Shown here: piece after piece, positions 3,714-34,880 of the stretch
How positions within the stretch are numbered: position 1 is the stretch's first letter
Layout: each line of letters starts with the position of its first letter
Assembly: GCA_964409445.1 (NCBI GenBank)
Contig: CAYPDN010000005.1
Coordinates: forward strand, 1 to 34,880
Length of the DNA stretch: 34,880 nt
Direction of reading: 5' to 3'
Source: an uncultured Granulosicoccaceae bacterium
GTDB taxonomy: Bacteria; Pseudomonadota; Gammaproteobacteria; Granulosicoccales; Granulosicoccaceae
Notes under the pieces: model-generated
Databases searched by the model: none
What the model saw: only the letters and a program-made list of their open reading frames with translations
What the model was told of the DNA's origin: nothing
Made by a program: the position numbers and the translations under genes

Positions 3714-3920
3714 CTAAGAGGGTTTATGCCAGCGAAAATCACAGTCGCGGCCCCACCCTCACGTAGTAGTCGTAATCCCCGCAATCCGGCAATTGCAGCC
3801 ATGTAGAAGTACGAGATGAGATAATTAATCTGACCTTTGGTACCTGCAGCTTCCATTTATTCTGCAAATACATCTCGCTTAACGGTTTTTCAATACCGGT
3901 GGTTTTTTGAGGAGGCAGTG

Positions 3921-6563
3921 ATGAATGACGATACCGGTCTGTTACCAGACCAGAAAACAGAAACATCAACAGCTAAAACCAGAATCGACCAGGCTGGTAA
4001 CCGACCAGTTGACAATGCTTCTGCTGCCAAAACCGAAAACGACCTGCCTTCTCCCAGCCATGTAGTCGGTATCGGAGCATCCGCCGGGGGGCTGACTGCT
4101 CTGCAAAACCTGTTTGACCGCATCCCGGAAAACACCGGAGCCGCTTTTGTTGTAGTGCAGCACCTGTCACCCAACTTCAACACACTGATGGACGAACTGC
4201 TGGCCAAGCATTCAAAAATGTCTGTCACCCTCGCCGAAGATGGCGAACACCTGTTACCCGATCATATCTACCTGATGCGGCCGAATCGCAACCTTATTGT
4301 GGCCGAGGGTAAATTGTTTCTCAACGAGATACACCGAACCGGACACCCCAACCTGCCCATCGATGAATTTTTCAGATCCCTCGCAGTTGATGCACAAAAC
4401 CGCTCAGTCGGTATTATTCTGTCCGGCACAGGCAGTGACGGAAGTCAGGGTGTAAAAGCCCTGCGGGAAGCAGGTGGTTTAGTGATGGCTCAACAACCCA
4501 ACGAGGCAGAGTTTGACGGTATGCCCGTCTCTGCAATCCGCACCGGATACGTTGATGCAATCGGTGATGTCGATGAGCTGGCCAGACAACTGGTTTCATA
4601 CATTCGCCATCCACTAACTGCCAGTAAAAACCGGGTGTTCAGAGAACATCTAGCCTCAAACAACGACTTGCTGGAAAAGATCTTTGTCAGACTCCGTGTC
4701 GCCACAGCTATCGACTTTTCGCTCTACAAACCGTCCACGATAGCTCGCCGAATCGAACACCGCATGGGTATCAACAATATAGAAACGCTACCCGCTTACG
4801 CCGAATTGCTTGATCGAAAGTCTGAAGAATTCGCGTTACTTAAATCAGATCTTCTGATTGGCGTTACACAATTTTTTCGCGATCCGGACGCCCACGCTGA
4901 GCTGGCAAAATCGGTACTACCTGCGATAACCAGCAACAAATCAGCTGATACACCAGTAAGAGTATGGATGGTGGGTATATCAAGTGGCGAAGAAGCCTAC
5001 TCGCTTGCCATAGCATTTAGTGAGCTGCTTGAAAGCTCAAAAACCACAATTCCGATAAAAATATTTGCAAGTGACGCTGACAGTGGCTCTATCGACTATG
5101 CGTCCGCAGGTGTTTACCCACCGTTTATTTCTAACGATGTTAGCGAAAAACGGCTGAGTAAATATTTTAAAATGGATGAAGCAGGAAACTACGTAGTAAA
5201 CAATCGGCTGCGTAACATGATTGTTTTTGCAACCCACAACGTACTCGAAGACCCACCGTTTTCAAATATGGACCTCGTGGTTTGCCGCAACATGCTGATC
5301 TACTTCCAAGCGGAGGCGCAAGAGCGAACTCTTGCACTGTTTAATTTTTCCCTGCGCGATGCAGGCTATTTGTGGCTTGGAAGTTCTGAATCACTGGGAG
5401 GGCAGGCAGATAATTTTAGTGAGCTTAGCAGCACCTCAAAAATTTGGCGTAAAACCCGATCATCACGCATTCCAATTCGCCATATCAATGCTGACCACTT
5501 GCGCAAAACATCAGCCAAAACAGCAAACAGGCCATCCCACGGGCTGACTCAACGCGGCGCTTTTGAACAGAAAAATATTTACCATAATGTTCGTGATCGA
5601 TTGCTGGATGAGTACGGTCCTGACGGAATACTACTCAACCCTGAACATCAGGCAGTACATATTTTTGGTGATTGTAAACACTATCTGGACAGACACAGCT
5701 CCGGACACGTCACCACTCACATTGACTCATTAATTGTGCCTTCTCTCGGTGTGCCTGTTTCTACCTGTCTTGCCAAAGCCACCGAGTCTGAAACCGGTAG
5801 CCATCGGTTGAACGATGTACCTATGCATCACCCCGATAAGCCGGATAAATTAATCAGCATCACCGCAAGACGTGTCACAGATGTTTCCCGCTCAAACGAA
5901 ACCTATTATCTGCTGCTGTTTTCGCAATTCAGGGACAGACCAGTTGAGCGCATCGAAGTCCCGAACATCTCTAATCAGGAGACATACCAGGCTGATACGC
6001 ACACACGAGAGCGGTTGCGCGAACTCGACTTACAGCTGAATGACTCACGTCAGGAGCTTCGCAATGCCTACGCCGAACTCGACACTACCAGTGAAGAGTT
6101 ACAGGCTACCAACGAAGAGCTAATGGCAGCCAATGAGGAACTTCAATCTACCAATGAAGAACTCCAGTCAGTTAACGAAGAACTCTACACTGTTAACACT
6201 GAGTACCAGGAAAAAATAGCTGAACTGATGGAACTGAATACAGATCTGGACAATCTGTTAAATTCGACCGGCTATGGAATAATTTTTCTCGACAGCACTC
6301 TTTCAATCAGACGCTTTACACCGCTAATGGCAAGATACATCAACCTCTTGCCTGGAGACGTTGATCGCCCGATCGGAGATTTCAAAATCAGTCTCAACTA
6401 CCCCGATTTGTTAACCGATCTGAATCAGGTGCTTAGTTCAGGTGAAACCATCGAGAAAAAATCAAGCATGAGTGGAAGCGATAATCAGCTGTCAATTAGT
6501 ATTAGTCCGTACATTTCAACGGATAAAACTATCAATGGCGTTGTTATGACAATCAGAGATTAA
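3921..6563 (+). CDS. CheB methylesterase - CheR methyltransferase fusion with heptad coiled coil and C-terminal PAS domain
   Basis: CheB-like: VVGIGASAGGLTAL, VVVQHLSP, ILSGTGSDGSQG. CheR-like: FFRD, RVWMVGISSGEEAYSLA, IFASDADSGSI, LVVCRNMLIYF. C-terminal PAS-like segment: GIIFLDSTLSIRRFTP. I chose the ATG at 3921 because GAGGAGG (3909-3915) precedes it by 5 nt. The track ORF starts at 3837 with a non-homologous extension. Confidence 0.88.
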   Translation: MNDDTGLLPDQKTETSTAKTRIDQAGNRPVDNASAAKTENDLPSPSHVVGIGASAGGLTALQNLFDRIPENTGAAFVVVQHLSPNFNTLMDELLAKHSKMSVTLAEDGEHLLPDHIYLMRPNRNLIVAEGKLFLNEIHRTGHPNLPIDEFFRSLAVDAQNRSVGIILSGTGSDGSQGVKALREAGGLVMAQQPNEAEFDGMPVSAIRTGYVDAIGDVDELARQLVSYIRHPLTASKNRVFREHLASNNDLLEKIFVRLRVATAIDFSLYKPSTIARRIEHRMGINNIETLPAYAELLDRKSEEFALLKSDLLIGVTQFFRDPDAHAELAKSVLPAITSNKSADTPVRVWMVGISSGEEAYSLAIAFSELLESSKTTIPIKIFASDADSGSIDYASAGVYPPFISNDVSEKRLSKYFKMDEAGNYVVNNRLRNMIVFATHNVLEDPPFSNMDLVVCRNMLIYFQAEAQERTLALFNFSLRDAGYLWLGSSESLGGQADNFSELSSTSKIWRKTRSSRIPIRHINADHLRKTSAKTANRPSHGLTQRGAFEQKNIYHNVRDRLLDEYGPDGILLNPEHQAVHIFGDCKHYLDRHSSGHVTTHIDSLIVPSLGVPVSTCLAKATESETGSHRLNDVPMHHPDKPDKLISITARRVTDVSRSNETYYLLLFSQFRDRPVERIEVPNISNQETYQADTHTRERLRELDLQLNDSRQELRNAYAELDTTSEELQATNEELMAANEELQSTNEELQSVNEELYTVNTEYQEKIAELMELNTDLDNLLNSTGYGIIFLDSTLSIRRFTPLMARYINLLPGDVDRPIGDFKISLNYPDLLTDLNQVLSSGETIEKKSSMSGSDNQLSISISPYISTDKTINGVVMTIRD
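6090..6215 (+). repeat. Six tandem 21-bp (7-codon) imperfect repeats encoding a heptad coiled coil inside the CheB-CheR gene
   Basis: SEELQAT/NEELMAA/NEELQST/NEELQSV/NEELYTV/NTEYQEK, in frame with the CDS. This is a coding repeat, not a CRISPR-like array. Confidence 0.85.
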
Positions 6564-7076: not shown

Positions 7077-9659
7077 TTGCACTACTCTTTACTTTATATA
7101 AGTCAATTCGCAGTCCCCGTTTCCAGCAAAACACTCGACGATATAAGAACCCAGTCTGCTCTTCTTAATCAGTCAGCCAATGTCAGCGGACTGCTACTTT
7201 CAACACCTGGCTACTTCTGCCAGTTTCTGCAAGGCAGCAGAATTGATGTTGAACAAACCATGTTGAGAATTAGCAAAGATTCCCGGCACAGAGAAATTGC
7301 TACTCTGCTAAAGACAGATTTACCGGAGACGCTGTTCCCGGGCTGGGGTATGGCAACAAGCCTTATACCAGCAGGCGATATAGCGACAGAAATCGAGCTG
7401 GCTTATCGGGATCGATTGGCCGACCTCAGTGCTGTCGACAGGCTCATGTCAATCATGCAGAGGTTTCGACCACTCGATGGTGTCGAAAACCCCGCCGTCG
7501 TCATTGACTCAGAATTTAATAAAGAGCTTGCCCTGACAAAACTCGCAACTAACAATGATGCAGTTCAGGGCTTGCTGGAACTGGGTAAAGCAATATTTAC
7601 TGATTGCGATATCGCACTGGCAATTCGTGAACCGGGTGATAATGGCTATAGCTCTCAGGCAAATACCGAAGCAGATAAAAATGCTGTTGCACTTTTGATA
7701 AACCAACTACCAAACAGGCATTTCACGCAAAACGCAAAGTTCTGCAGGCTTGATCATAACGGAAGCCTTCAATGGTCACCTGCCGCCCAACCCGAAAACC
7801 CGACTTCTGCGATTACCACCTTCCCAAATTCAGGCTACATCGCTGCAACCGGGATAGCGGTAACAGACGCTAAACAAGAAATCATTGGCACCTTGTGGAC
7901 GTTAAGTAGCGTAGCAGGAACACTGGTCAACGCAGCGGACACAAACAAACTTACGCAGTTGGCCCTATCCATAGCTGAACAAATTGAACTTCGCCGTGTA
8001 GCTCTTCTAACCGACTTACAAAAACAAACATCACAGCGCCAACAGCTCAATATCGCCGCAAATCTACGCCGACTTGAAGCGGTAGTTAATGTAGCCAGCA
8101 GCGCGATTGTCGCACTCGACCGAAAAGGCCGCATCCTCATGATCAACGATGCCGCACGCAAGCTGTTTGGTTTTCATAACGAAAAGGTACCATTCGACTG
8201 GCCGAGCCCAACCGGTTTTCTGGACCCGGGAACACTCATTCCGGTTACTGATAGCAGTTCTCCGCTGCACTATGCGATAGCCAGGGCAGATCCTGAATTC
8301 AACAATAAAATGAAGCATGCGATCAAAAATAAATTGTTTGCACGGAAATGCCATCTATCCAATGATCTGTGCTTTCTTCGAGTAACAGCCACCGAGGTCG
8401 ATGAGATCGATTCTGCAATATGGTCAGTACTTGTATTTGATGATGTTACGGCACTTGAGTCCGGCAGAGAGCGCATTAGACGCAGTGATCGTCTTGAAGC
8501 TCTGGGTCAGCTAACTGGTGGAATAGCCCACGACTTTAACAACATACTTGCAACTATTCAGAGTTCAGTGGAGCTTGCGAAGACCGAAACGGATCAGGTA
8601 CGCCAAAATCAACTTCACGATATTGCCATAACCAGTGTGGAGCGCGGTGCAGCACTCACCAATCGCCTGATTACTTTTGCACTGGCAAATCCAACCGTCG
8701 CGGAGGTACACAGCTTAACTGACGTGATGCAGTCACTGCTTGAACTCGCCGAGAGCGGTATTGCTGAAGATATTAATTTGACTATCTCACCTTTCTCGCC
8801 ATCTGTCGGAGTGAAGTGCGACGCGGGGCAATTGGAAAATGCACTTTTAAATATACTGATCAATAGTCGTGATGCGATTCGCGACAGTGGTGTCGGCGGT
8901 CAAATGTTGGTGGAAGTCAATGTGATACCACAAGACCAAAGCCAATCAGGCAACAATAGTGGTTCTGATGGAAACACACTGGTAGAAATTGTATTGTCAG
9001 ACGATGGACCAGGCATGTCAGAGGAAGTTATTCGGCGTGCAACAGATCCTTTCTTCTCGACCAAGCGCGACAAAGCAAGCAGCGGCCTGGGGCTTTCTAT
9101 GGTTTACGGTTTTGTACAACAGAGCGGTGGAGAATTGTTAATAAAAAATCTTCGCGACTCAGAAAACCCGCTATCCGGCACCCAAATTACTTTAACACTC
9201 GAGTACGCAACCAAAGAGCCACCTGCCCCACAGGCTGCAACAGACAATCACGCCAGTGACACGGCTGCAAATCATCAAACCGCGAATATATTGCTGGTCG
9301 AAGATGAACCGGAACTCGCACGAGTGCTGGAGCTCACCTTGCGGCGAAGTGGACACAATTTGCAAGTAGCTCATAACGGCCACGACGCAAGGATGATTTT
9401 ACAAAGCGATATTGAACTTGATTTACTCTTAACCGATATCGTACTGCCAGGAGCAATAGACGGGTACGCTCTGGCAAAAGATGCATCGAACTTACGGCCT
9501 GAACTGCGGGTTGTATACTTAAGTGGATACGCGCAGCAACGTTCAGACGCATCTTTACTGGGACCAGTTTTGTCTAAGCCTGTTTCGACTCGGCAACTGA
9601 TGGCTGTCGTACAAAGGGAGTTGCAAACTGCAGTTGATCTTTCAACTGTTGAATCCTAG
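7077..9659 (+). CDS. BLUF - GAF-like - PAS - HisKA/HATPase - REC hybrid sensor histidine kinase (putative blue-light sensor kinase)
   Basis: N-terminal BLUF: HYSLLYISQ (Tyr), LLNQSANVSGLL (Asn), YFCQFLQG (Gln), ISKDSRH, FPGWGMA (Trp/Met). DHp: LGQLTGGIAHDFNNIL. N/G boxes: ENALLNILINSRDAI, DDGPGM, FFSTK, GLGLSMV. REC: ILLVEDEPE, DLLLTDIVLPG, VVYLSGY, SKP. TTG start, tightly coupled to the upstream REC gene. Confidence 0.85.
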   Translation: MHYSLLYISQFAVPVSSKTLDDIRTQSALLNQSANVSGLLLSTPGYFCQFLQGSRIDVEQTMLRISKDSRHREIATLLKTDLPETLFPGWGMATSLIPAGDIATEIELAYRDRLADLSAVDRLMSIMQRFRPLDGVENPAVVIDSEFNKELALTKLATNNDAVQGLLELGKAIFTDCDIALAIREPGDNGYSSQANTEADKNAVALLINQLPNRHFTQNAKFCRLDHNGSLQWSPAAQPENPTSAITTFPNSGYIAATGIAVTDAKQEIIGTLWTLSSVAGTLVNAADTNKLTQLALSIAEQIELRRVALLTDLQKQTSQRQQLNIAANLRRLEAVVNVASSAIVALDRKGRILMINDAARKLFGFHNEKVPFDWPSPTGFLDPGTLIPVTDSSSPLHYAIARADPEFNNKMKHAIKNKLFARKCHLSNDLCFLRVTATEVDEIDSAIWSVLVFDDVTALESGRERIRRSDRLEALGQLTGGIAHDFNNILATIQSSVELAKTETDQVRQNQLHDIAITSVERGAALTNRLITFALANPTVAEVHSLTDVMQSLLELAESGIAEDINLTISPFSPSVGVKCDAGQLENALLNILINSRDAIRDSGVGGQMLVEVNVIPQDQSQSGNNSGSDGNTLVEIVLSDDGPGMSEEVIRRATDPFFSTKRDKASSGLGLSMVYGFVQQSGGELLIKNLRDSENPLSGTQITLTLEYATKEPPAPQAATDNHASDTAANHQTANILLVEDEPELARVLELTLRRSGHNLQVAHNGHDARMILQSDIELDLLLTDIVLPGAIDGYALAKDASNLRPELRVVYLSGYAQQRSDASLLGPVLSKPVSTRQLMAVVQRELQTAVDLSTVES

Positions 9660-10257: not shown

Positions 10258-11361
10258 CTAACGCACAGCGATGATAAGGCCCGCAGACCGGTCAGCAACC
10301 GCTATGTGTGTATCATTCGCGGCTACCCCGACAGCTTGCTGGAGCGGCAGGCTTAAGCTGTCGACGACTGTTTCTGTAATCGGGTTTACAGTGTCCACAA
10401 TGCTGCGTTCCACACTTACCACAAACAGCTGACTACCGTCCGTCGCAACATTTGTTGGTTGATAGCCAAGGGGGATGAGAGAAAGCGCATCAGATACAGA
10501 TCTGTCAATTACCTGCAGACCATCTGCCGCAAAATGAGCAACATACAACTGCTCGTTTAAAAACTCGCTTTCCACCGGAAGATTTGCGGGTGCGAAAGGA
10601 ATATCAAAGCCGCCGGTAAACGGAGCCGGCGTGAGTACAACAACCTCAGGTATGTTTAGTATATTTCCATTGCCATCAAACTCGACGGTTTGAATACCCC
10701 AGTTGGCCACAAGCCCGAGATCCTGCGAATAGAAAGCCACCGCTCCACCATCGGTTGCTGCAACATGTACATCCGGGTTACCGGTCCGACCATCCACCTG
10801 CGGTATACCCGAAATGCTCAACGACAGAGAGCTCGCATCGTACGTATAGACCTCTGTGTTAGATCCGCCAGAACCTGCTGATACCACCAAAACTCCATTG
10901 GCAGATGAAATACCAGAAAATATTGAGAAATTAGTATTTACCGTAGTGATCACGGCAGGTTCCAACGGATTAACAAGATCGAATTGGGTCAGGGTATTTC
11001 CAGATTGTGTAAATAAAACTCCAAAGCTCGAATCGCCACTAATATCATCAGCCGGGATCGATACAAAGTTGCGTTCCAGTGAATTCAGATCAACAACTTC
11101 AATTCCAGTATCGCAGGCGCCATAGGCAAACTCATCAATTATCACGACGTTCTGACAACCGTTGCCTGCCAAACTATTAGTATCTACCACGGCAGTGGAG
11201 TCACCACTCGGCACGCCCGGCTCACCGTTTTCCTCAGCACCGAAAACCTCTTCGGCCGACTCTTGTCCAATCGATGCAATATCCTGATCATCCGAAGAAC
11301 ACGCGTTGATGAAAACAATGAACGTAAAACATACAAAAAGGCGAACGCGAATTTTAATCAT
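10258..11361 (-). CDS. Lipoprotein with beta-propeller-like (LVIVD-like) repeats
   Basis: Signal peptide plus lipobox: MIKIRVRLFVCFTFIVFINAC|SSDD. Recurring segments of the type GIEVVDLNS, DGLQVIDRS and AGLIIAVR resemble LVIVD repeats. The product call is tentative. Confidence 0.7.
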   Translation of the reverse strand: MIKIRVRLFVCFTFIVFINACSSDDQDIASIGQESAEEVFGAEENGEPGVPSGDSTAVVDTNSLAGNGCQNVVIIDEFAYGACDTGIEVVDLNSLERNFVSIPADDISGDSSFGVLFTQSGNTLTQFDLVNPLEPAVITTVNTNFSIFSGISSANGVLVVSAGSGGSNTEVYTYDASSLSLSISGIPQVDGRTGNPDVHVAATDGGAVAFYSQDLGLVANWGIQTVEFDGNGNILNIPEVVVLTPAPFTGGFDIPFAPANLPVESEFLNEQLYVAHFAADGLQVIDRSVSDALSLIPLGYQPTNVATDGSQLFVVSVERSIVDTVNPITETVVDSLSLPLQQAVGVAANDTHIAVADRSAGLIIAVR

Positions 11362-25107: not shown

Positions 25108-26478
25108 TTAGTGAGTCAGTATTTGTGAGAGGAATCGCGAAGGCTGTTCTGTCGTTAATGGCAGAATCCATTCGCTGGACAATTGACGCCTGTTGATCGT
25201 TAGTAAATTAAGAGACGGATCAACCATCAACTGAGACGGCCGACTATTAAGCGCACAATTGGCTTTCACGGCGACACTTATTGGAACGTGTCCCTGTCGC
25301 TGCCAGTCTTCCTCAAGAAAATGTGCAAATTGAAGCAGCATATCTGGTATGCAGGACATTTTTCGGCGCTGTTTTTTGGTGAGGTAATCAATAGGATCTA
25401 CCGTCCACTCCTGAGTATCGGTTTTAACCGTGTAGATTGCACTGCCCCGTTTAGATCTGAGCTTCATGCGCCAGCTGAATCGATGACCATCTTCGTTCCA
25501 GGCGACGTTCCCGGGCAGCGCCCAGTTTCGAAAAGGAACAGCGATCTGCAGCAACAGCCAGCTGAACATCACTAACAAAACAAGCTGGTGCCTGGGGGCG
25601 AACGAATGATCAAACGGTTTAACCGACATTGAAGTCAGCGACCTGCTGGTAAATCGAGCAGCGAATTTCTTTGGCCAGTCCGGATCAAGAACCAGCGTAC
25701 TGGCGAACAAGGTAAACCACGGAAAGATACCGATGTTAAAAACAAAGTGGTTCATCACATGGAATACGAAATAAACAGCCAATACCCATAGTCGCGTACT
25801 TTTGAACAATAGCAATGGTGCCCCCACCAGATGCAACAGGACAGCGCCATAAGCGCCGAGTGCTATACCGATATCACTGGTCAGTGTGGTAAAAAACGGC
25901 GGGAACTGCGGTCTGGTTTCAACCATCCACATACGCAGTGGCTCAAGGTTGAGCCAGTCAGGATTAAGCTTTACCAGCCCCGCGTGTATCAATATTATTT
26001 CAAGCTGGACTATCAACACTATGATTGCCCAGCGCGGTATGGTTCTGGATGCGATAGATGCATCGCGGCGGGCATCCAGCGACAAATAAGCGTTTGCCGG
26101 CACAAACAGCATAACGACGCAGAACAAAATCACCATGTAGTAGTGATTCAGGTAGAGCGCTTCATCAAGCAGAAATGCGTAACTGAAACCCACCGTAAAT
26201 ATTAGTAGCGCGAGCCGGTAATGGTACCCAACCATAACCGCAATGGCCGCTATCGTAAGCACAGACCAGTGCAGATAAAGACCGATGCCCGGCCAGGGTT
26301 CCACCCATTCGAAGTACTTATACTTAAACAGCATTGACGGCTGCAAATACTTGCAGGACAGACAAAGGAAAAACTGATTGACGCTATCGAATATTAGAAG
26401 AATTCCGAAACCGATTCTGAAGATAGCAAGGGAACTCGCATCAACCTGATCAAAGAGTTTTTGGAATAATTTATACAT
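25108..26478 (-). CDS. HTTM-domain membrane protein (vitamin K-dependent gamma-carboxylase-like)
   Basis: N-terminus VDASSLAIFRIGFGILLIFD followed by a polytopic membrane region typical of HTTM proteins. Confidence 0.75.
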   Translation of the reverse strand: MYKLFQKLFDQVDASSLAIFRIGFGILLIFDSVNQFFLCLSCKYLQPSMLFKYKYFEWVEPWPGIGLYLHWSVLTIAAIAVMVGYHYRLALLIFTVGFSYAFLLDEALYLNHYYMVILFCVVMLFVPANAYLSLDARRDASIASRTIPRWAIIVLIVQLEIILIHAGLVKLNPDWLNLEPLRMWMVETRPQFPPFFTTLTSDIGIALGAYGAVLLHLVGAPLLLFKSTRLWVLAVYFVFHVMNHFVFNIGIFPWFTLFASTLVLDPDWPKKFAARFTSRSLTSMSVKPFDHSFAPRHQLVLLVMFSWLLLQIAVPFRNWALPGNVAWNEDGHRFSWRMKLRSKRGSAIYTVKTDTQEWTVDPIDYLTKKQRRKMSCIPDMLLQFAHFLEEDWQRQGHVPISVAVKANCALNSRPSQLMVDPSLNLLTINRRQLSSEWILPLTTEQPSRFLSQILTH

Positions 26479-27370: not shown

Positions 27371-28231
27371 TCAGGAATTAGTCACTTCATCTTCAACACC
27401 ATTGCGAAGCGTGCCAATACCCTCTACCTCTACTTCAATAATATCACCAGGAACAAGATACCTGGGCGGATCAAACCTGGCGCCAGCACCAGTCGGAGTT
27501 CCGGTAACGATAATATCACCAGGCTGCAGGGTCATAAATGTGGAGATATATTCAATTTCGGTTCTTATCGGAAACATCATTCGTGACAGAACATCATCCT
27601 GACGAACTTCTCCGTTAACGCGAGTTATGATGTGCGCGTCGTCAAGCTGCTTTGGATCTTTAAACGGTACAAGCCACGGACCCATAGCACCTGAACAATC
27701 CCAGTTTTTCCCCTGTGTCACGTTAAACTTGGCATGTCGTACCCAATCTCGTATGGTGCCTTCGTTGCAAAGCGTAATAGCCGCTATGTGATCATAGGCA
27801 TTGTCTTTAGAGATACGACGACCTTCCTTGCCAATAACTATGGCAACCTCGCCTTCATAATCAAGGGTGTGGTTTTCCGGAGGTCGCACCAAATTGCGTT
27901 GATGACCGGTAAAACCAGACGCAAAGCGTGGAAACAATGACATATATTTTGGCAGTTCACTGCCGTCTTTGTATTCAGCATTGCGATCAGGGAAATTAAC
28001 TCCCACGCAGAGTATGCGCTTTGCATTGGGCAATACCATTTCATACTGATAGTCTGAATGAGTTAGCGATGCACCATCAGCTGCCAGCTCAAGCTTGTCC
28101 AAAGCATTTGCCTGTATAACATCAAGCAAAGTAGGCCACTGCGGAAACCCTGGGCTAAGAGCAATCATTCCTTTGTCGGTGGCAGCACCGTAGAAGGTTT
28201 CACCATTTACAGAATAAGTTGAGTAACGCAT
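27371..28231 (-). CDS. Fumarylacetoacetate hydrolase (FAH) family enzyme, HpaG-like isomerase/decarboxylase/hydratase
   Basis: LDYEGEVAIVIGK, NEGTIRDW, FNVTQGKNWD, LQPGDIIVTGTPTGAG. It is the last gene of the hpa-like operon. Confidence 0.85.
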   Translation of the reverse strand: MRYSTYSVNGETFYGAATDKGMIALSPGFPQWPTLLDVIQANALDKLELAADGASLTHSDYQYEMVLPNAKRILCVGVNFPDRNAEYKDGSELPKYMSLFPRFASGFTGHQRNLVRPPENHTLDYEGEVAIVIGKEGRRISKDNAYDHIAAITLCNEGTIRDWVRHAKFNVTQGKNWDCSGAMGPWLVPFKDPKQLDDAHIITRVNGEVRQDDVLSRMMFPIRTEIEYISTFMTLQPGDIIVTGTPTGAGARFDPPRYLVPGDIIEVEVEGIGTLRNGVEDEVTNS

Positions 28232-28309
28232 AGTTCTCGTTCCAATTTGAATTCGGCCGGTTCGGTCACGGCCAGATTGTTCATGACCAGCTTAATCACG
28301 GTACTAAGT

Positions 28310-29293
28310 TTACGGTGCAATAATAGGGCTGGCAGCGAGCGATGAGTCCTGTGGCTCCACACCGATAAAATTAGTACCGTGTTCAAACCAGCTGCGAGGT
28401 GCTGCAGCACCCCATAGCGTCTGCCGCTGCGGATCTGTGAGATCCCATTTGATTGGTTCCATATCAGGGTCAACCGTCTGGTAGTCGCTGCAATATATCT
28501 CTATGCGGTGACCATCGGGATCAAGAATATACAAAAAGAAAGCATTTGAAATTCCGTGGCGTCCGGGACCACGCTCAATGTTATCGACATAACCCGTGGT
28601 TGCCATCAGATCAAGCAGGTCAATTATGTTTAGCGGTGTCGGCACCCAATAGGCAATATGGTGCATGCGCGGTCCATTGCCGTTAGTGAATGCCATATCG
28701 TGCACCCCGCCTTTACGGTGCATCCATGCAGCCCACAGTTTTTTGCTGTTTTCATCTTCTGTATATTCAGTAACCCGAAAACCGAAGTCGCTGTAGAACG
28801 CAACTGATGCATCGACATCAGTTGAGAAGACATTGAAATGATCTATCCGCAGTGGCTTAACACCTCGATACAGGGCATATTTTTGGTGTATCGGCTCCAG
28901 CCGATCCATCTTGTGATAAAACTCCAGCGGAATGCCAAGGTTATCTGAAGTAAGCAAAGTTCTACCCTGATGTGCCCGCTCCACCCATTCGGTCGGTCGG
29001 CCTTTGGCTTTAAAGTACTTATCTGCTTTGTCGAGATCCTGTTCGTCGAAAGTTTTAAAACCCATAGCCTCAACAGAACCTGGCTGATCTGATTTTTGCA
29101 GTACAAGACAATGATGACCACGCTCCTCCATGGCGCGCAGGTATATATGCGTATCAGTTTCATCTGTTACCTGAAGCCCAAGAATTTCGGTATAGAATTT
29201 TTTAGAAACCACGAGGTCTTTAACATTGAGATACGCGTGAGACAAACGGATCGTATTAAAGTCCGGGTAGAGATTTGGTGCAGGTACTGGCAT
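28310..29293 (-). CDS. hpaD: Type I extradiol dioxygenase, 3,4-dihydroxyphenylacetate (homoprotocatechuate) 2,3-dioxygenase-like
   Basis: Two VOC modules. RIDHFNV, MHHIAYW and GHRIEIY fit the His/His/Glu metal ligands. RGPGRHGISNAFFLYILDPDGHRIEIY is typical of HPCD/MndD-type enzymes. Confidence 0.8.
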   Translation of the reverse strand: MPVPAPNLYPDFNTIRLSHAYLNVKDLVVSKKFYTEILGLQVTDETDTHIYLRAMEERGHHCLVLQKSDQPGSVEAMGFKTFDEQDLDKADKYFKAKGRPTEWVERAHQGRTLLTSDNLGIPLEFYHKMDRLEPIHQKYALYRGVKPLRIDHFNVFSTDVDASVAFYSDFGFRVTEYTEDENSKKLWAAWMHRKGGVHDMAFTNGNGPRMHHIAYWVPTPLNIIDLLDLMATTGYVDNIERGPGRHGISNAFFLYILDPDGHRIEIYCSDYQTVDPDMEPIKWDLTDPQRQTLWGAAAPRSWFEHGTNFIGVEPQDSSLAASPIIAP

Positions 29294-29305
29294 ATTTGCA
29301 ATCTC

Positions 29306-30817
29306 CTATTGTGCGCCCAGGCGCGATATTTTGTGCTGCCCGGTTGCAAAGCCAATATGCTTTTGCTCCATGTAAAACTCGAACGACCAGTCGCCACCGT
29401 CGCGCCCGATACCACTTGCTTTTACACCACCAAAAGGCGTTGGCAGATGGCGAACATTCTCAGAGTTCACCCAGATCATGCCCGCTTCAAGTTTATCTGT
29501 AAAACGCAGCGCACGGGTTAGATCATTGGTCCAGACATAGCCGGTCAATCCATACAGTGTATCGTTCGCAATGGAGAGCGCCTCTTCTTCAGTGGAAAAC
29601 GCAATCGACGTTAAGACAGGACCGAATATCTCTTCCTGCGCAATACGCATATTGTTGTTCGCATTGGTGAATAACGTGGGCTGTACAAAATATCCTTCAT
29701 CTCCAACTGCCTCGCCACCAACCGCAATGGTTGCTTTATCTTGTTTGGCGATGTCGAAATAACCGGTGACTTTTTTAAAGTGCTCTTCACTAATTAATGG
29801 GCCAACTTCAGTAGTCGGATCAAGCGGATGCCCTGTTTTGATATTTTTCACGCGCGCTGCAAGCTTTGCTTCAAATTCTTCACGTATGGTGTCCTGAACC
29901 AACAGTCGTGATGACGATGTGCAGCGCTCGCCATTAATTGAGTAGATCATAAAAATTACCGCATCCAGCGCACGCTCAAGATCCGCGTCGTCAAACACAA
30001 TAACCGGGTTCTTGCCACCCAATTCCAAATGATTACGCTTGAGCGTGTCTGCACCCTGCTTTGTAATCAGGCTGCCTGTACGGCTTTCCCCAACAAACGC
30101 AATTGCCTTAATCAGCGGATGCTCACAAAGCGCCTTGCCTGCCTCTTCACCAAAACCGTTAACGGTATTCAACACACCCGGCGGCAAGCCCGCTTCTTCT
30201 GCGATCTCTACTAACAATCTGGCAGTTAGCGGTGAGGACTCAGCCGGTTTGTGTACCACGGTACAACCGGCTGCAAGTGCCGGCGCTATCTTCCAGGTAG
30301 ATAGCATAAACGGTGTATTCCACGGAGTGATAATCCCGACAGGTCCAATCGGCACACGGCTGGTGATGTTCAATAATGTTGGTGATTTTAAATGCTTGCC
30401 ATCACGTGCCTGCACCACCTGATCTGCAAAATATCTAAAGTTCTCTGCACCACGCAACGCCGCCTTCGACATAAAGCGTATCGCCTGGCCAGTATCCCAA
30501 CACTCACAGAAAGCGATCTCTTCTGCACGGGCTTCAATTCCTTCAGCCACATTGATAAGTATTTTGCGACGCTCTGTGGCAGGCATGTCGCGCCAGAGCG
30601 GATAATTCTCAGCAGCTGCAATCGCTGCATTATCTATGTCAGCTGCAGTGCCATGAGCCACATCGCAAATGACGCTCTTGTCAACCGGTGAGGTCGACTG
30701 GAACACACCGCCACCGCCTGCTACGTCTTTACCTGCAATGCGATTCAATATCCCTGACTTTTTAAACTGCGCTAAATACTCGCCAAGTTTATCCAGGTTT
30801 TGTTCAAGTGTGCTCAT
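29306..30817 (-). CDS. hpaE: NAD-dependent aldehyde dehydrogenase, 5-carboxymethyl-2-hydroxymuconate semialdehyde dehydrogenase-like
   Basis: LELGGKNP (catalytic Glu), INGERCTSSSR (catalytic Cys), EEIFGPV. The likely start is MSTLEQ at 30817. The track ORF extends to 30871 with a non-homologous leader. Confidence 0.85.
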   Translation of the reverse strand: MSTLEQNLDKLGEYLAQFKKSGILNRIAGKDVAGGGGVFQSTSPVDKSVICDVAHGTAADIDNAAIAAAENYPLWRDMPATERRKILINVAEGIEARAEEIAFCECWDTGQAIRFMSKAALRGAENFRYFADQVVQARDGKHLKSPTLLNITSRVPIGPVGIITPWNTPFMLSTWKIAPALAAGCTVVHKPAESSPLTARLLVEIAEEAGLPPGVLNTVNGFGEEAGKALCEHPLIKAIAFVGESRTGSLITKQGADTLKRNHLELGGKNPVIVFDDADLERALDAVIFMIYSINGERCTSSSRLLVQDTIREEFEAKLAARVKNIKTGHPLDPTTEVGPLISEEHFKKVTGYFDIAKQDKATIAVGGEAVGDEGYFVQPTLFTNANNNMRIAQEEIFGPVLTSIAFSTEEEALSIANDTLYGLTGYVWTNDLTRALRFTDKLEAGMIWVNSENVRHLPTPFGGVKASGIGRDGGDWSFEFYMEQKHIGFATGQHKISRLGAQ

Positions 30818-31064
30818 AGGAGTTGTTCCTGGTTCTACCGTGCGCAATAGTAACAATGTGGCGGTTAACAATGGGATTCATCAGGGTTTATTCCTGTGAT
30901 CTTGTCAGTACGACACCACCAGCCAGTAAGGTAACGCAGCTGCTGGATTCAGACAATATCGAATAGCTTTGATGACTCATCGGCGATAGGACCGATAGTC
31001 TCTTCACGATCCGAATAAAGACAGTTGGGATAGAGATCAACCGGGAGTTAAGCCGGCCGGGAAG

Positions 31065-31309
31065 CTAGCCCGGATTATTCATAAGGATTCGGCTTCCAGA
31101 GTCAATAACGCTAAACAGGTCACTCGATCGCCTGAGAAACGTGGCTTGCCACGTGCCGACGGGGATCGTGTGAGATGTGACGCGCTATTGGCTGCTGGAG
31201 TCGAATAGACAGACTGTCATTTAAGTCATGACACTAAAATACGATGAACCTCTACAAATACAGTACTTTGCCTAGATACTCTCGTCGCCTTATGAATAAT
31301 CCGGGCTAG
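31065..31309. repeat. 245-bp element bounded by perfect 22-bp inverted repeats (MITE-like element or long-range RNA stem)
   Basis: CTAGCCCGGATTATTCATAAGG at 31065-31086 is the exact reverse complement of 31288-31309, and 201 bp lie between them. The right arm contains the phosphatase stop codon (31306-31308). No transposase ORF is inside. Confidence 0.7.
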
Positions 31310-32031
31310 GCAGGTGGAGAAAGCGCCTCTTTACCCTTATCTGTCAATATCCAGCAACGCGCCTCCTCAAACACGGCTGCTGTGAGGTGCCGACCATAGC
31401 CCGAGCCAGTATCCAGATTGACCCGATTGCCATAATGCTGCGCTTTCTCAACTGGTGTGTGCCCATGCACAACTAAAAACGGGTGCTGGCGTTTGTCCTC
31501 CAGAAATTCGTAACGTATCCAGAGTAGTTCGTGCGGGTCTTGCTTCTCAATCGGCACACCAGGGCGAATACCGGCGTGCACAAAAAGAAGATCGTTTTCC
31601 TGATGTGAGTGTGGCAGTGAGTCCAGAAACTCGATGTGCTCGGCAGGCACCGCTGCCAGTGAGCTCATATAAACATCTTGCTTGTGATCACTATCATCCA
31701 CCTTCACACCGTAGCTCGCGAGTGTCTCTTTACCTCCCAGTCTGTCGTCCAGCCAGTGGTAGTCGACAGTCAACTGAGCCTGACAGTCTTCCATAAACAG
31801 GGAGAACATCTGATCGTGGTTTCCCTTCAGACAGACCCAGTTTTTATTTTCAGCAAGGCCATTCATTAAAAACTCAATTACACCGCGGCTTTGCAATCCA
31901 CGGTCGATATAGTCACCAAGAAAAACTACGCGCGCGTCAGAACCACCATCGTTTTCTATTTTTTTAATTGTTCCCTTGAGCATATCCAGCTCACCATGAA
32001 CATCGCCAACGGCATAAATTTTGTTCTTAAT
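31306..32031 (-). CDS. PPP-family metallophosphoesterase (PrpA/PrpB / lambda-phosphatase-like Ser/Thr phosphatase), probable ATT start
   Basis: Motifs GDVHG (upstream of the first ATG), GDYIDRG, GNHD, VHAG and HGHTP. In-frame codons upstream of ATG 31983 read IKNKIYAVGDVHGELD. GGAGA (32041-32037) lies 5 nt before ATT (32031-32029), and an in-frame TAA is at 32049-32047. Confidence 0.8.
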   Translation of the reverse strand: MKNKIYAVGDVHGELDMLKGTIKKIENDGGSDARVVFLGDYIDRGLQSRGVIEFLMNGLAENKNWVCLKGNHDQMFSLFMEDCQAQLTVDYHWLDDRLGGKETLASYGVKVDDSDHKQDVYMSSLAAVPAEHIEFLDSLPHSHQENDLLFVHAGIRPGVPIEKQDPHELLWIRYEFLEDKRQHPFLVVHGHTPVEKAQHYGNRVNLDTGSGYGRHLTAAVFEEARCWILTDKGKEALSPPA

Positions 32032-32113
32032 TCTACTCTCCTGTATTTAGAACATTTGTCTCAGGTTTTAGCCGAAAAATCGACTGTTTACAGTGTTATT
32101 TCTTCGAATTCCA

Positions 32114-34880
32114 CTATGATACACCGGCCTTGTTGTACTTGATTAAAGTTCTGGCTCTTTGGGCAAGTAAATCGGTAAAATCGTCACCTTTAAGGATAGC
32201 GCGTTTTCCACTACCAATGCCGGTGGTGTAGTCCTTAACGAAAAACGGCACACTGTCATAGCGACGCACCACATCCCCTAAGGTATAAACGTGCTGCCAA
32301 CTGGCAATAATATCTGCAGCTAACTCACGATTTTCAACGATGGATTGATTATTCTGCAGTTTTATCTGCAGCGAGTTTAGTTCTACCATCGACCGGACCT
32401 TTCCTCCATACCGCCCTGTCTTTTTTAACGCTAACTGCTGACCGGCCACAGATTTAAATTCTGCATTCACTGCTGCAATATAGGGAGCGACAGATACTTT
32501 AGTTGCAGCGTGCACATTACTCACCCGGTGGCGGTGAATACCCGCCTCCGCGTTGAGGTAACCATAAGCGTAAGGGCCATCCACCTTTATTAGCACAGGG
32601 TCACTATCATCAAGTGGTTCGCAAAGCAGTGTTACCTCACGACTCATCTCACGACACCAGGCGAGATAAATCTCATATAATTCATCCCTCCCTAAACAGG
32701 AATCACCCACAGGCTCCAATAACACCAGCGCCTCGTGATTATACTCATCGCCAAAAACCAATAGCTCCAGTTCAGATCGTTCAATGTCCTTATCCAGCAA
32801 GTGTCCGGCAGTGTCAGCATAGGCTAACTGCTCTCGCGCCGGACTGTGCTCAATAGTTCGCACCAGATCTTCAACCCGGTTGCTCAGTCTTTCGAGACGA
32901 TTGAGTGTCTCGTTGATAGACTCTGCGCGCTTTAGCATATGCATTGCATTATCACGATTTTGCCAGAACTCACCAGTGTCTCTGCTTTGATCAATCTCTG
33001 CCAACTCTCGTCGCAAAGCTTTCACATCGATCGACTGTTCCAGTGATTCAATCCGCTCAGCACGTGTTGCAAAAGCATTCTGTAACTCTGCAATTCTGAC
33101 TATGCTGGTGGCTGCTTTCTCATTTATGAATTCGGGCCTGGGTTTACTTACATCACTGTCCGAAAACGACTTAACGATTGTTCTGCCATCGACACTTGAC
33201 AGGTTAACCAATGCGCCTGCCGGAACATGGTTCTCCATCAGGAATGCACCAATTGGCAACGCTAAGCGACGCTGCACTTCGCGCTTTAACGCCCGTGCAC
33301 CATATCTGTCTGAATAGCCGTATTGCACAATCGCGTCAACCACACTGTCATCTATGTCGATAATCAGATTTCTACTAACGATACCACTGCGCTTGATAAT
33401 CTTTTTTACCTCTCCCTGAGCAATCTGACGAACATGAGATTTATCAAGTGCGTGAAAAACCAAAACATGTTGAAATCGGTTTAAAAATTCTGGTCTGAAA
33501 TAGTTCTCCAATACGTGCAGCGGAACTGTGGAAGTTTCTTCCTGCGTGAATCCGGGAGTTGGTCGCGACATTTCACTCGCTCCCGCATTGGTAGTACATA
33601 TCACAATAGTATTGCGAAAATCGATGGTCTGGCCATCAGGTTGGGTCATGCGGCCTTCATCAAGCAGCTGCAACATTAAGTCATAAATGTTGCTGTGTCC
33701 TTTTTCTATCTCATCAAACAGTATTACCTGAAAAGGTTGTGCTCGAACCGGATCAATTAACAACGCAGACGAGTTCGCGCCACCCTGTCCGATCAGCTGT
33801 TGAAATGAGTTGTAGGTGGCGTACTCCGACATATCAAATCTGAGTAAGCGTTGCGCACTTCCATACAGATACTCCGCCAGCGCTTTTGAAAGTTCAGTCT
33901 TTCCAACACCGGTCGGGCCTGTAAACAGGAATGTACCAATTGGCTGATTCGGATCACGCAGTCCTGACTTAAACAAGGTTATTGACTCAACCACCGCTTC
34001 GATCGCCTGTGCCTGACCAAAAATTCGCTGTTGAAACCACTTGCGGATTGTGCCGGCGGACACAGTCATGTTGCGTGAAAAAACAAAAGCTGGTAACCCG
34101 GTATACATTGAGAATACTTTGTCTACGAAGACAGTATCGATCGGCTCAACTCGGTTGATCGCTGCTTTTTCCTGAGCGTAGCTCTGAACTCTTTCTATTA
34201 ACGCTAAGCGAGTACCGGGACCGGGATCCGGAGGCGTAAAGTTTTCAGTCAGTTCCTTGAGGTGTGGATGAAATTCATCATCAAAAGGATGATCGATATA
34301 AATCTCGGCTTTTTCAGTGACTATTTGATCCACCTGCTGTGGTGACAACGGCTCAAGCAGTATTCGGTGAAAAAGGTCAACAAAGCCCGGCACTCGCAGC
34401 ATGCGCTTATAACCTTCCGGAGTGACTTCACCCACAAGTACAACATCACCACTCTTCATCAACGGGCGCAGTATATCCAGACTACTGTGCTTGTCGTTTG
34501 AAGACTGCCCCATTCGTGCGAGGTTTGCTACATCAACAAAGTACAACACAGCATTTCGTTTCGCAGCGCTTTCAACATAGCCCATTAGCTTGGTGGGCCA
34601 TTCACCAAGATAACGTGTTCCCACCAGAATAGAAGAGGCCGATAGCTCCAGACATTGCTGACCAGACTCTTTAAGTGCAGCAGCTATACCCAGAATGGTA
34701 CTGGTTTTACCACTTCGGGCCGGACCAACCAGCAATACCGATTTACGCTGCTGGATAGCCGCAATGCCGTCTCGAATCTCTTTGTCGCGAAACCTGGGTA
34801 CAAGCGCACTGTCCCGCTTAACCATTTTAGTGAGGTTACGGCTATCCCGGGACAGATCATCTTCAATCTTTTTTGATCCT
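32114..34880 (-). CDS. Clp/Hsp100-like double AAA+ ATPase fused to a C-terminal class-I release-factor-like (PCRF + RF-1-like) module; 5' end probably outside the window
   Basis: D1: LLVGPARSGKT, with Walker B position LYFVDV. D2: FLFTGPTGVGKT, VILFDEIEK, ICTTN, PEFLNRF, YGARALKR. C-terminal ~320 aa are collinear with RF1/RF2: EFWQNRDNA, GDEYNHEALVLLEPVGDSCLGRDELYEIYLAWCRE, GPYAYGYLNAEAGIHRHRV, SVAGQQ (at the GGQ position), VRRYDSVPFFVKDYTTG. The frame is open from 34825 to 34880 (GSKKIEDDLSRDSRNLTK-M...). Confidence 0.85.
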   Translation of the reverse strand, partial: GSKKIEDDLSRDSRNLTKMVKRDSALVPRFRDKEIRDGIAAIQQRKSVLLVGPARSGKTSTILGIAAALKESGQQCLELSASSILVGTRYLGEWPTKLMGYVESAAKRNAVLYFVDVANLARMGQSSNDKHSSLDILRPLMKSGDVVLVGEVTPEGYKRMLRVPGFVDLFHRILLEPLSPQQVDQIVTEKAEIYIDHPFDDEFHPHLKELTENFTPPDPGPGTRLALIERVQSYAQEKAAINRVEPIDTVFVDKVFSMYTGLPAFVFSRNMTVSAGTIRKWFQQRIFGQAQAIEAVVESITLFKSGLRDPNQPIGTFLFTGPTGVGKTELSKALAEYLYGSAQRLLRFDMSEYATYNSFQQLIGQGGANSSALLIDPVRAQPFQVILFDEIEKGHSNIYDLMLQLLDEGRMTQPDGQTIDFRNTIVICTTNAGASEMSRPTPGFTQEETSTVPLHVLENYFRPEFLNRFQHVLVFHALDKSHVRQIAQGEVKKIIKRSGIVSRNLIIDIDDSVVDAIVQYGYSDRYGARALKREVQRRLALPIGAFLMENHVPAGALVNLSSVDGRTIVKSFSDSDVSKPRPEFINEKAATSIVRIAELQNAFATRAERIESLEQSIDVKALRRELAEIDQSRDTGEFWQNRDNAMHMLKRAESINETLNRLERLSNRVEDLVRTIEHSPAREQLAYADTAGHLLDKDIERSELELLVFGDEYNHEALVLLEPVGDSCLGRDELYEIYLAWCREMSREVTLLCEPLDDSDPVLIKVDGPYAYGYLNAEAGIHRHRVSNVHAATKVSVAPYIAAVNAEFKSVAGQQLALKKTGRYGGKVRSMVELNSLQIKLQNNQSIVENRELAADIIASWQHVYTLGDVVRRYDSVPFFVKDYTTGIGSGKRAILKGDDFTDLLAQRARTLIKYNKAGVS

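Follow-up and report, generated by a model that had tools for sequence, protein, structure and literature searches.

What might a bacterial protein do in which a Clp/Hsp100-type unfoldase and a release factor are joined in a single polypeptide? This question is raised by a gene at the end of a stretch of 34,880 nucleotides of DNA from an uncultured Granulosicoccaceae bacterium (contig CAYPDN010000005.1 of assembly GCA_964409445.1, positions 1 to 34,880; hereafter the window). An earlier note, made from the sequence alone, had described its product as a tandem Clp AAA+ core without middle domain, followed by a module that resembles a bacterial release factor (RF) domain by domain, and both parts of this description were borne out by Pfam, the ClpA model, profile searches, AlphaFold2 (AF2) models and Foldseek. 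We find that this bacterial protein is genuine, is widely conserved and has apparently not been studied before, and that its family, a large one, is a new and so far unnamed subfamily of Clp/Hsp100 in which the accessory domain is of a new type. The reading we favour, tentatively and at not quite an even chance, is that of a ribosome-targeted, probably ClpP-coupled remodeller whose adaptor would be a Pelota-like, functionally dead release factor 2 (RF2), the functional steps being deduced from homology.

The gene lies on the minus strand, where a single uninterrupted frame runs from the window edge (34880) to the stop codon at 32114-32116. As noted before, this frame counts 921 codons to the edge and 903 from the first ATG, and all motifs quoted earlier are present in it, including GPARSGKT, GPTGVGKT, ILFDEIEK, GARALKR, P-G-F, RIFGQAQAIEAVVESI and VRRYDSVPFFVKDY. 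The first ATG, however, is not the start of the gene, as the sequence around it can be aligned with a conserved part of ClpA. A near-identical public protein (P0008; 100% identity in one search, a couple of residue differences in another) has 927 aa and begins with MSGKSK; on its contig (L013) the start codon is a TTG, preceded by the ribosome-binding site GGGGGAGG and located 6 codons past the window edge, so that the window copy lacks these six codons only. The Granulosicoccaceae orthologues start at the same place. Could the continuous frame nevertheless be due to a frameshift, a misassembly or a pseudogene in which prfB has become attached to a clpA-like gene? The probability of such an artefact is practically negligible, since it is ruled out by more than 120 independent clusters that share the full-length architecture at similar lengths and come from many assemblies and phyla. 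In addition, the 921-codon frame is unbroken, the full-length AF2 model is confident (mean predicted local distance difference test, pLDDT, of 86.8, with only two internal disordered segments, the putative ClpP-docking loop among them), and the tether of about 17 residues between the two halves is poorly conserved in sequence yet always present in the family alignment.

In a full-length search these more than 120 clusters were retrieved with identities of 39-84%; query coverage is 94-100% in nearly all of them, and most are 902-955 aa long. They stem from Gammaproteobacteria, Alphaproteobacteria and Myxococcota, named sources being Steroidobacter flavus, Ketobacter, Granulosicoccaceae, Myxococcales and Polyangiaceae. 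A HMMER scan of 1.84 billion representative proteins yielded 75 matches at E<=1e-30. More distant subfamilies of the fusion are 940-1000 aa long (one of them from Pirellulales, Planctomycetota), 1124-1206 aa if N-terminal HEAT repeats are present (P0231, P0245) and 1354-1404 aa if TPR repeats are present (P0224, P0225, P0240, P0260); further members of distant subfamilies are P0204, P0206, P0208, P0228, P0239 and P0252. Within the family the RF-like module never occurs free-standing but is always fused to the AAA+ part. With the module alone as query, a word-indexed collection of 5.8 billion proteins gave 7 RF2-like matches and missed the family (a limitation of the word index), whereas the full-length query found it, and in a scan of metagenome loci with patterns shared by real RF2 about 12 of 80 loci proved to be family members. 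Annotation refers to these proteins as 'AAA family ATPase' or ClpA/ClpC only, except for one JGI record with the automatic name 'ClpA/protein subunit release factor A'. Thus pipelines do notice both halves; among the NCBIfam-type models matched, none is a curated family for the fusion. In line with the earlier remark that no characterised member was known, a Clp/AAA+-RF fusion is not described in the freely accessible full-text literature searched, and the fullest published census of the RF family, which comprises RF1, RF2, ArfB, PrfH, ICT1, C12orf65 and MRPS35, lists no AAA+ fusion (PMC6514570).

We first consider the C-terminal module. The Pfam domain PCRF (PF03462) matches it with E=2.9e-11 (44 bits at a gathering cut-off of 24), and the prfB model TIGR00020 with E=3.9e-19 over model positions 5-197, at 68.9 bits far below its cut-off of 370. 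A profile built from 25 module sequences found RF2 in the PDB with E=4.9e-28 (RF2 residues 3-293) and RF1 with 8.5e-17, the alignment passing through the GGQ domain, and even a single-sequence tblastn search with the module recovered genuine prfB genes over 80-90% of its length. Structure prediction, which had been proposed as a check, pointed in the same direction: the AF2 model of the module reaches a pLDDT of 90.9 and a predicted template modelling score (pTM) of 0.85, its top 50 PDB matches in Foldseek are all RF2 or RF1 over about 360 columns, and the best template modelling (TM) score (0.69, 366 columns) is obtained with the free, compact form of RF2 (1gqe). By its PCRF domain and its overall four-domain fold the module belongs with RF2, and as far as profiles and predicted structure tell, it is a complete four-domain RF2 fold, which we refer to as pseudo-RF2. 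Its conservation is pronounced. FW in domain 1, G.YAYGYL..E.G.HR.R, S...QN and VRRYD..PF.V[KR]D..TG are retained and strongly conserved; the last of these is the most conserved stretch of the module (44-sequence alignment A2), with both Arg residues and the Asp of VKD invariant and the Tyr nearly so. Also invariant are HR and S, the Asp of VRRYD is nearly so, and many basic residues are conserved. This strong constraint argues for a specific binding function that has been kept from RF2, and for the RF fold no binding site other than the ribosomal A site is known.

The functions of a release factor, on the other hand, seem to be gone. The earlier note had called the class-I RF module complete, and it had expected Pfam matches to AAA or AAA_2, ClpB_D2-small, PCRF and RF-1. 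Completeness holds for the fold but not for the functional motifs, and all of the expected domains were found apart from RF-1 (PF00472), for which the last 136 residues give no match even at E<=10. Motif counts here and below refer to an alignment of 120 full-length family members, which was compared with solved structures. The family-wide equivalent of GGQ is [TVIK]-G-x, in which the first Gly is absent throughout and the third residue is Gln in half of the members and Arg, Val, Ala or Lys in the others. A nearby GGK, implied before as the GGQ equivalent, was rejected: the flanking RA...S anchors align without gaps in both HMMER and MAFFT, so GGQ falls on T-G-R and GGK lies 3 residues downstream, out of register. 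Also, GGK is conserved only in part (Gly in 105 and 88 of the 120 at its first two positions, Lys or Arg in 117 at the third), with GEK, GNK, NGK, HGR or NNR elsewhere. An 8-10-residue deletion in domain 2 removes the SPF loop, the stop-codon-reading Glu of the alpha5 GxxE motif is replaced by non-conserved residues family-wide, and in the subfamily of the window protein helix alpha7 and the switch loop are shorter by about 18 residues. Some distant subfamilies have a longer, more RF2-like alpha7/switch region (e.g. WGSVVRTY in P0224), but GGQ and SPF are missing from all of them. Judged by these motifs, the pseudo-RF2 is catalytically and decoding-dead and not a functional release factor.

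Such losses would also be expected if the pseudo-RF2 acted off the ribosome, as a protein-protein interaction or regulatory domain of a Clp unfoldase with non-ribosomal clients. It might then serve as a decoy or recognition domain for RF2 binders (PrmC, RF3, ArfA-like proteins), as an oligomerisation collar or as an autoinhibitory plug. All RF2 motifs for ribosome function (GGQ, SPF, alpha5 Glu, switch loop) are lost, the AF2 model is compact like free RF2, as the best TM score with 1gqe indicates, and no translation-related neighbour is conserved. However, the whole four-domain fold, the FW motif and the basic residues are kept across very distant subfamilies, which exceeds what a simple collar would need, and the fusion gene has no linked gene that might encode a partner. 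Overall, we consider an off-ribosome role rather improbable.

The N-terminal part of the protein is a Clp motor of unusual composition. Pfam reports AAA_2 (PF07724, 1.9e-44) and ClpB_D2-small (PF10431, 3.5e-11) together with a weaker match of AAA (PF00004) for the first AAA+ module (D1), and PDB matches of this part are ClpB, ClpC and ClpA structures with E-values from 1e-61 to 1e-80. With two tandem AAA+ modules and a C-terminal D2-small domain the protein belongs to class 1 of Clp/Hsp100. The NCBIfam model of ClpA aligns contiguously (positions 168-718 of 734) and ClpB models align in two separate stretches, thus there is no insertion of a middle domain (M-domain). At 302 bits, against a cut-off of 993 for the ClpA equivalog (TIGR02639/PRK11034), the protein is not a ClpA orthologue. 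A ClpA/B N-domain (Clp_N) is absent, as the protein begins about 30 residues before D1.

In AAA+ enzymes the Glu of Walker B is the catalytic base and Arg fingers act in trans, loops of the Ar-phi-Gly type grip the substrate, and IGF/IGL loops dock into ClpP. Read in terms of these roles, the motifs would point to an inactive, nucleotide-binding D1, to a motor driven by the second module (D2) only, and to probable docking of ClpP. In this composition it is not a standard Clp motor. Walker B of D1 reads D-[VI]-W-N family-wide, with Glu in none of the 120 members, and the position of the Arg fingers is occupied by GFVDLF; both losses recur in all distant subfamilies. Neither the hhhhDE form of Walker B nor the Arg fingers of a catalytically competent D1 are present, and D1 is predicted to bind nucleotide yet to be hydrolysis-dead. 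D2 has the full set of ATPase motifs, namely invariant Walker A and B, sensor-1, the FRPE arginine and sensor-2. Its pore-1 loop is 4 residues shorter than that of ClpA/B and reads G-[DSN]-P-x-P-x-x-P-A-R-L in the family, without the aromatic of GYVG, and no aromatic residue is found at this position in the distant subfamilies either. In fact, one combination of motifs is constant across all subfamilies: the D1 Asp without Glu, a K/R-Y-[IL]-G-E-W pore loop, a D2 without GYVG and a G-[FL] loop.

This G-[FL] loop follows sensor-1 and occupies the position at which ClpA and ClpX carry their ClpP-docking loops. Family-wide the tripeptide is [IVLM]-G-F, its Gly and Phe being present in 120 of 120 members, and a hydrophobic residue followed by G-F or G-L ([IVLF]-G-[FL]) is retained in most of the distant subfamilies. 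The window protein has P-G-F at this place, as had been noticed before, and every residue of the tripeptide has its counterpart in the ClpA loop KSIGL that was grafted into the BAP chimera (5ofo). BAP is the top PDB match of the AAA+ part (E=9.9e-81), and KSIGL is aligned with PTPGF. The surrounding region is predicted to be disordered, with pLDDT <50 at residues 442-447, and disorder is typical of loops that dock on ClpP. A Pro as first residue of the tripeptide is found in the clade of the window protein (P0008-10, 12 and 13); the window protein and its 4 closest clusters have P-G-F. Judged by the conserved motif, the G-F loop is a candidate site for the docking of ClpP.

A remodeller that works without ClpP is a second alternative to be weighed at this point. 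Its dead RF2 arm would sit in the A site, and hydrolysis by D2 would split the subunits, eject a factor or tRNA, or dissolve ribosome assemblies, so that it would functionally resemble Pelota-ABCE1 or a ClpB-like disaggregase. The logic of a dead RF is identical to that of Dom34, D2 lacks the aromatic pore loop that is found in all known protease-coupled unfoldases, the window clade has P-G-F instead of [IVL]-G-F, and ClpB structures are the best sequence matches of D2. This alternative hardly accounts for a docking position that is G-F without exception in the family and hydrophobic-G-F/L in most of the distant subfamilies, since ClpB/Hsp104 have no such loop; moreover, an M-domain for coupling to Hsp70 is absent. 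We therefore regard it as unlikely.

Which known systems does the fusion protein resemble? In its way of working it would come closest to a ClpA/ClpC-type machine into which an adaptor has been built. It is not an orthologue of ClpA, ClpB or ClpC, and it departs from the class in two canonical features, an active D1 and a GYVG loop in D2. With ClpA/ClpC it shares the tandem AAA+ modules, D2-small, the absence of an M-domain, the pore Tyr of D1 and the hydrophobic-G-F/L loop at the IGL position; unlike them it has no N-domain, no Walker B Glu and Arg fingers in D1 and no GYVG in D2, and a 340-residue RF2-like module is added at its C-terminus. From ClpB/Hsp104 it differs by the missing M-domain and by the G-F loop at the ClpP-docking position. 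BAP (an engineered ClpB with the ClpA loop) is an artificial construct; it contains an M-domain and the canonical GYVG loop, and it lacks an RF module. With RF2 (PrfB) the pseudo-RF2 has in common all four domains in the same order as well as FW, G.YAYGYL..E.GVHR, QN..S...N and [IV]R.Y......[KR]D..TG; in contrast to RF2 it has no GGQ, SPF loop or alpha5 GxxE Glu, its alpha7/switch region is about 18 residues shorter, and it is always fused.

Further parallels concern the logic rather than the fold. Pelota/Dom34 is an eRF1 without NIKS or GGQ; it moves into the A site of problem ribosomes and has ABCE1/Hbs1 as its partners. The common element is an RF paralogue without codon-reading or catalytic motif in the A site together with an ATPase; the fold of Pelota (aeRF1) is unrelated, however, its ATPase is a separate ABC protein, and there is no link to a protease. 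The Pelota/Dom34 system is discussed in PMC6514570, and so is Vms1/ANKZF1 with Cdc48/p97, in which a protein of the RF family is physically attached to a two-ring AAA+ unfoldase that passes its substrates to a protease. Vms1 is aeRF1-like, keeps the catalytic Gln and binds Cdc48 via a VIM motif, whereas the pseudo-RF2 is fused, derived from RF2 and dead. ArfB, PrfH and MRPS35 are likewise RF-derived proteins recruited outside normal termination; in MRPS35 an RF-PH domain persists without its Gln (PMC6514570), while ArfB and PrfH keep GGQ and release peptides, and a fusion to an ATPase is seen in none of them.

From the known roles of the motifs and from the A site as the known place of binding of the RF fold, a mechanism can be drawn up for the favoured ribosome-targeted, probably ClpP-coupled remodeller. 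The hexamer would be held together by the ATP-bound, non-hydrolysing D1, and D2 would be its sole drive. One of the six tethered pseudo-RF2 arms would dock in the ribosomal A site or the factor-binding site. Being unable to recognise a stop codon or to cleave peptidyl-tRNA, this arm would be a pure targeting adaptor, a substrate-selecting domain placed at the C-terminus in place of the N-domain. In this way the motor would be brought to ribosomes with an accessible A site, i.e. stalled, vacant or damaged ones, where it (probably together with ClpP on the G-F loops) might extract and degrade a ribosome-associated polypeptide, such as the nascent chain, a trapped factor or a ribosomal protein, or might pry the complex apart. 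The additions of TPR and HEAT repeats at the entry face of D1, with a pseudo-RF2 that stays constant, fit substrate entry at D1 and a role of the pseudo-RF2 as localising element. Delivery of an unfoldase to ribosomes by the RF-like module, as the earlier note had proposed, is a plausible idea.

Several points weigh against this reading. Ribosome binding, like every other functional step, is a deduction from homology, and the losses of the SPF loop, the alpha5 Glu and the switch loop may themselves have abolished the affinity for the A site. A ClpP-coupled unfoldase without an aromatic pore-1 loop in the ClpP-proximal ring would be unprecedented. The pseudo-RF2 arm would leave the motor on the D2 side, which is proximal to ClpP, and a long distance separates the A site from the peptide exit tunnel. 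With its Pro in the docking tripeptide, the window's own protein is the one for which coupling to ClpP seems least certain. Finally, no conserved operon partner (clpP, ssrA/smpB, arfA etc.) is present across 13 gene-annotated loci, and a sigma-32-type promoter was not found upstream in 10 loci.

The genomic context bears on one more alternative. The fusion gene stands alone, usually among core housekeeping genes of the chromosome, and several of its contexts are linked to translation or proteostasis: in Ketobacter it lies between dnaK-dnaJ-dapB and carAB-greA, at another locus between FKBP and cspA near rplU-rpmA-obg, in a Myxococcales metagenome-assembled genome (MAG) near infA and a tRNA synthetase gene, and in Steroidobacter near HSP20 genes and a MnmC-like methyltransferase gene. 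Association with mobile elements was considered and rejected, since 72,556 plasmids and 50,697 phage records yielded matches to genuine prfB only and no relatives of the fusion. A role in anti-phage defence or abortive infection, as an effector by which translation is shut down or monitored, could be suspected from matches to the PADLOC models DolB and PDC-M37B (1e-25 to 1e-27), from HEPN_AbiU2 and HNH genes near one fusion gene (L010) and from the position of another among transposases and integrases (L017). These PADLOC matches are, however, confined to the generic AAA_2 region (residues 277-439), a partner gene such as DolA is not adjacent, no conserved partner being found in the 13 gene-annotated loci, and the prevailing housekeeping context and the absence from plasmid and phage records speak against a defence role as well, which we judge very improbable. 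Membership in Dodola (as DolB) or PDC-M37B was rejected, the match being partial and generic and the cognate partner (DolA or M37A) lacking. Regulation by heat shock was rejected likewise, as no promoter of the form CTTGAAA-N11-17-CCCCAT with up to 3 mismatches occurs within 300 nt upstream of the gene in the 10 loci mentioned; the sequence TTGAGG...CACCAT upstream of the gene for P0008 (L013) is visually suggestive of sigma-32 but has 4 mismatches.

What would follow if the favoured reading were true? We know of no bacterial AAA+ unfoldase or Clp protease with a direct tether to the A site of the ribosome. In bacteria, the known routes of rescue and quality control proceed either by tagging (tmRNA, RqcH) and subsequent action of free ClpXP, or by GGQ-bearing RFs (ArfA-RF2, ArfB, PrfH), and to our knowledge the lineages that carry the fusion family mostly lack RqcH. 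A Clp motor with a Pelota-like dead RF2 would represent a new coupling of translation surveillance to mechanical unfolding or proteolysis. The chance that the family marks a new ribosome-linked pathway is substantial. A more far-reaching version, for which we see clearly less than an even chance, would make the protein the bacterial equivalent, within one polypeptide, of Pelota-ABCE1 or Vms1-Cdc48: an A-site-targeted Clp protease or remodeller of a new ribosome-associated quality-control or turnover pathway in Proteobacteria, Myxococcota and Planctomycetota, with its grip in a hydrolysis-dead D1 and its ATPase in a D2 without aromatic pore loop. The motor is also of interest as a natural experiment for the AAA+ mechanism, in which D1 would grip without hydrolysing and D2 would hydrolyse without canonical grip, the ClpP-docking motif being kept. 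As long as its members are annotated as 'AAA family ATPase' or 'ClpA/ClpC', the family stays invisible in genomes. The positions of all features in the window are compiled in the following table.

Table 1. Features of the fusion gene and of its downstream neighbour (window coordinates)
Feature	Position	Strand	Basis
Whole AAA+/pseudo-RF2 fusion coding region; stop 32114-32116, first 6 codons past window edge	32114..34880	-	
D1 AAA+ module, window residues ~20-265	34085..34822	-	PF00004, contiguous ClpA alignment, AF2 full-length model
D1 Walker A GPARSGKT (family GxxGxGK[TS])	34703..34726	-	Family alignment
D1 pore-1 loop GTRYLGEW; Tyr in 109/120, cf. KYRGEFE of ClpA/B	34598..34621	-	Family/structure alignment
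Degenerate D1 Walker B LYFVDVAN; Asp retained, Val in place of catalytic Glu	34523..34546	-	Family/structure alignment
D2 AAA+ module and D2-small, window residues ~275-572	33164..34057	-	PF07724, PF10431, Clp structures
D2 Walker A GPTGVGKT, invariant (120/120)	33896..33919	-	Family alignment
D2 pore-1 loop region IGQGGANSSALL	33758..33793	-	Family/structure alignment
D2 Walker B ILFDEIEK, DE invariant	33701..33724	-	Family alignment
P-G-F tripeptide at ClpA IGL / ClpX IGF position	33548..33556	-	Family and 5ofo alignment; loop predicted disordered
D2 sensor-2 GARALKR	33281..33301	-	Family alignment
Flexible tether from D2-small to RF-like module, DSDVSKPRPEFINEKAA	33110..33160	-	pLDDT <50 at residues 574-590
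Pseudo-RF2 domain 1, helical bundle, RF2 FW motif retained	32753..33115	-	Profile, AF2, Foldseek, alignment
Pseudo-RF2 domain 2, PCRF core, G.YAYGYL..E.G.HR.R	32480..32734	-	Pfam, profile, alignment
Pseudo-RF2 domain 3, GGQ-domain fold without GGQ, then shortened helix alpha7	32297..32467	-	Profile, AF2, Foldseek
TGRYGGK segment, T-G-R in register with GGQ	32399..32419	-	HMMER and MAFFT alignments
Pseudo-RF2 domain 4 / C-terminal part, VRRYD..PF.VKD..TG	32117..32287	-	Family alignment
PPP-type metallophosphatase, ~80 nt downstream of the fusion gene, possible facultative partner	31306..32031	-	L018, L021 neighbours

The phosphatase gene listed last belongs to the PPP family and is ApaH/PrpE/Pnkp-phosphatase-like; the gap between it and the fusion gene contains no promoter or terminator consensus. 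A survey of gene neighbourhoods had been proposed in order to see whether the fusion and this neighbour are conserved. The fusion is; the neighbour is conserved in the closest clade and at one remote locus only. A PPP-type gene also lies directly 3' of the fusion gene, on its strand, in an 84%-identical relative (L018, 10904-11581) and, independently, in a very distant locus of the TPR subfamily that encodes a 1404-aa fusion (L021, 12327-13469; 25% identity, E=3e-11), and none of the ~23 other family loci that were scanned has it. The phosphatase is thus a possible facultative link or a coincidence, and not a defining partner. Concerning the gene itself (31306-32049, minus strand), its catalytic motif I, GDVHG, is encoded in the same frame before the first ATG (31983) is reached, and the frame has no ATG, GTG or TTG between the in-frame stop at 32047-32049 and this motif. 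An AGGAG is located 6 nt before an ATT at 32029-32031, and the L018 orthologue has AGGAG, 6 nt and ATC at the same place (~10846-10851). Judged from this arrangement, the start codon is probably the non-canonical ATT.

Other genes were seen next to fusion genes at single loci. In the Pirellulales locus (L019) a convergent NUDIX gene is 8 nt away from the fusion gene. In an alphaproteobacterial MAG (L015, 8780-10273) a convergent gene overlaps the 3' end of the fusion gene by ~10 nt; its product of 497 aa contains two ABC_tran domains and may be ABC-F-like. On the contig that encodes P0008 (L013), the gene upstream of the fusion gene (612 aa, partial) is without a Pfam match.

Elsewhere in the window, translations inspected by eye suggest an aromatic meta-cleavage set at 27371-30871 on the minus strand (FAH-family hydrolase/isomerase, extradiol dioxygenase, aldehyde dehydrogenase). 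This run, an ordinary metabolic context, separates the fusion/phosphatase pair from HTTM and Prc genes. The former, at 25108-26478 on the minus strand, encodes a homologue of vitamin-K-dependent gamma-carboxylase (HTTM 2.7e-71, VKGC lumenal domain 1.4e-39). A 367-aa ORF at 10258-11361 (minus strand) has no Pfam match at E<=1e-5. On the plus strand, 3837-6563 encodes a CheB methylesterase, a CheR methyltransferase and a PAS domain in one polypeptide, and beside it, at 7077-9659, lies a gene for a hybrid kinase composed of BLUF (blue-light), PAS, HisKA, HATPase and receiver domains.

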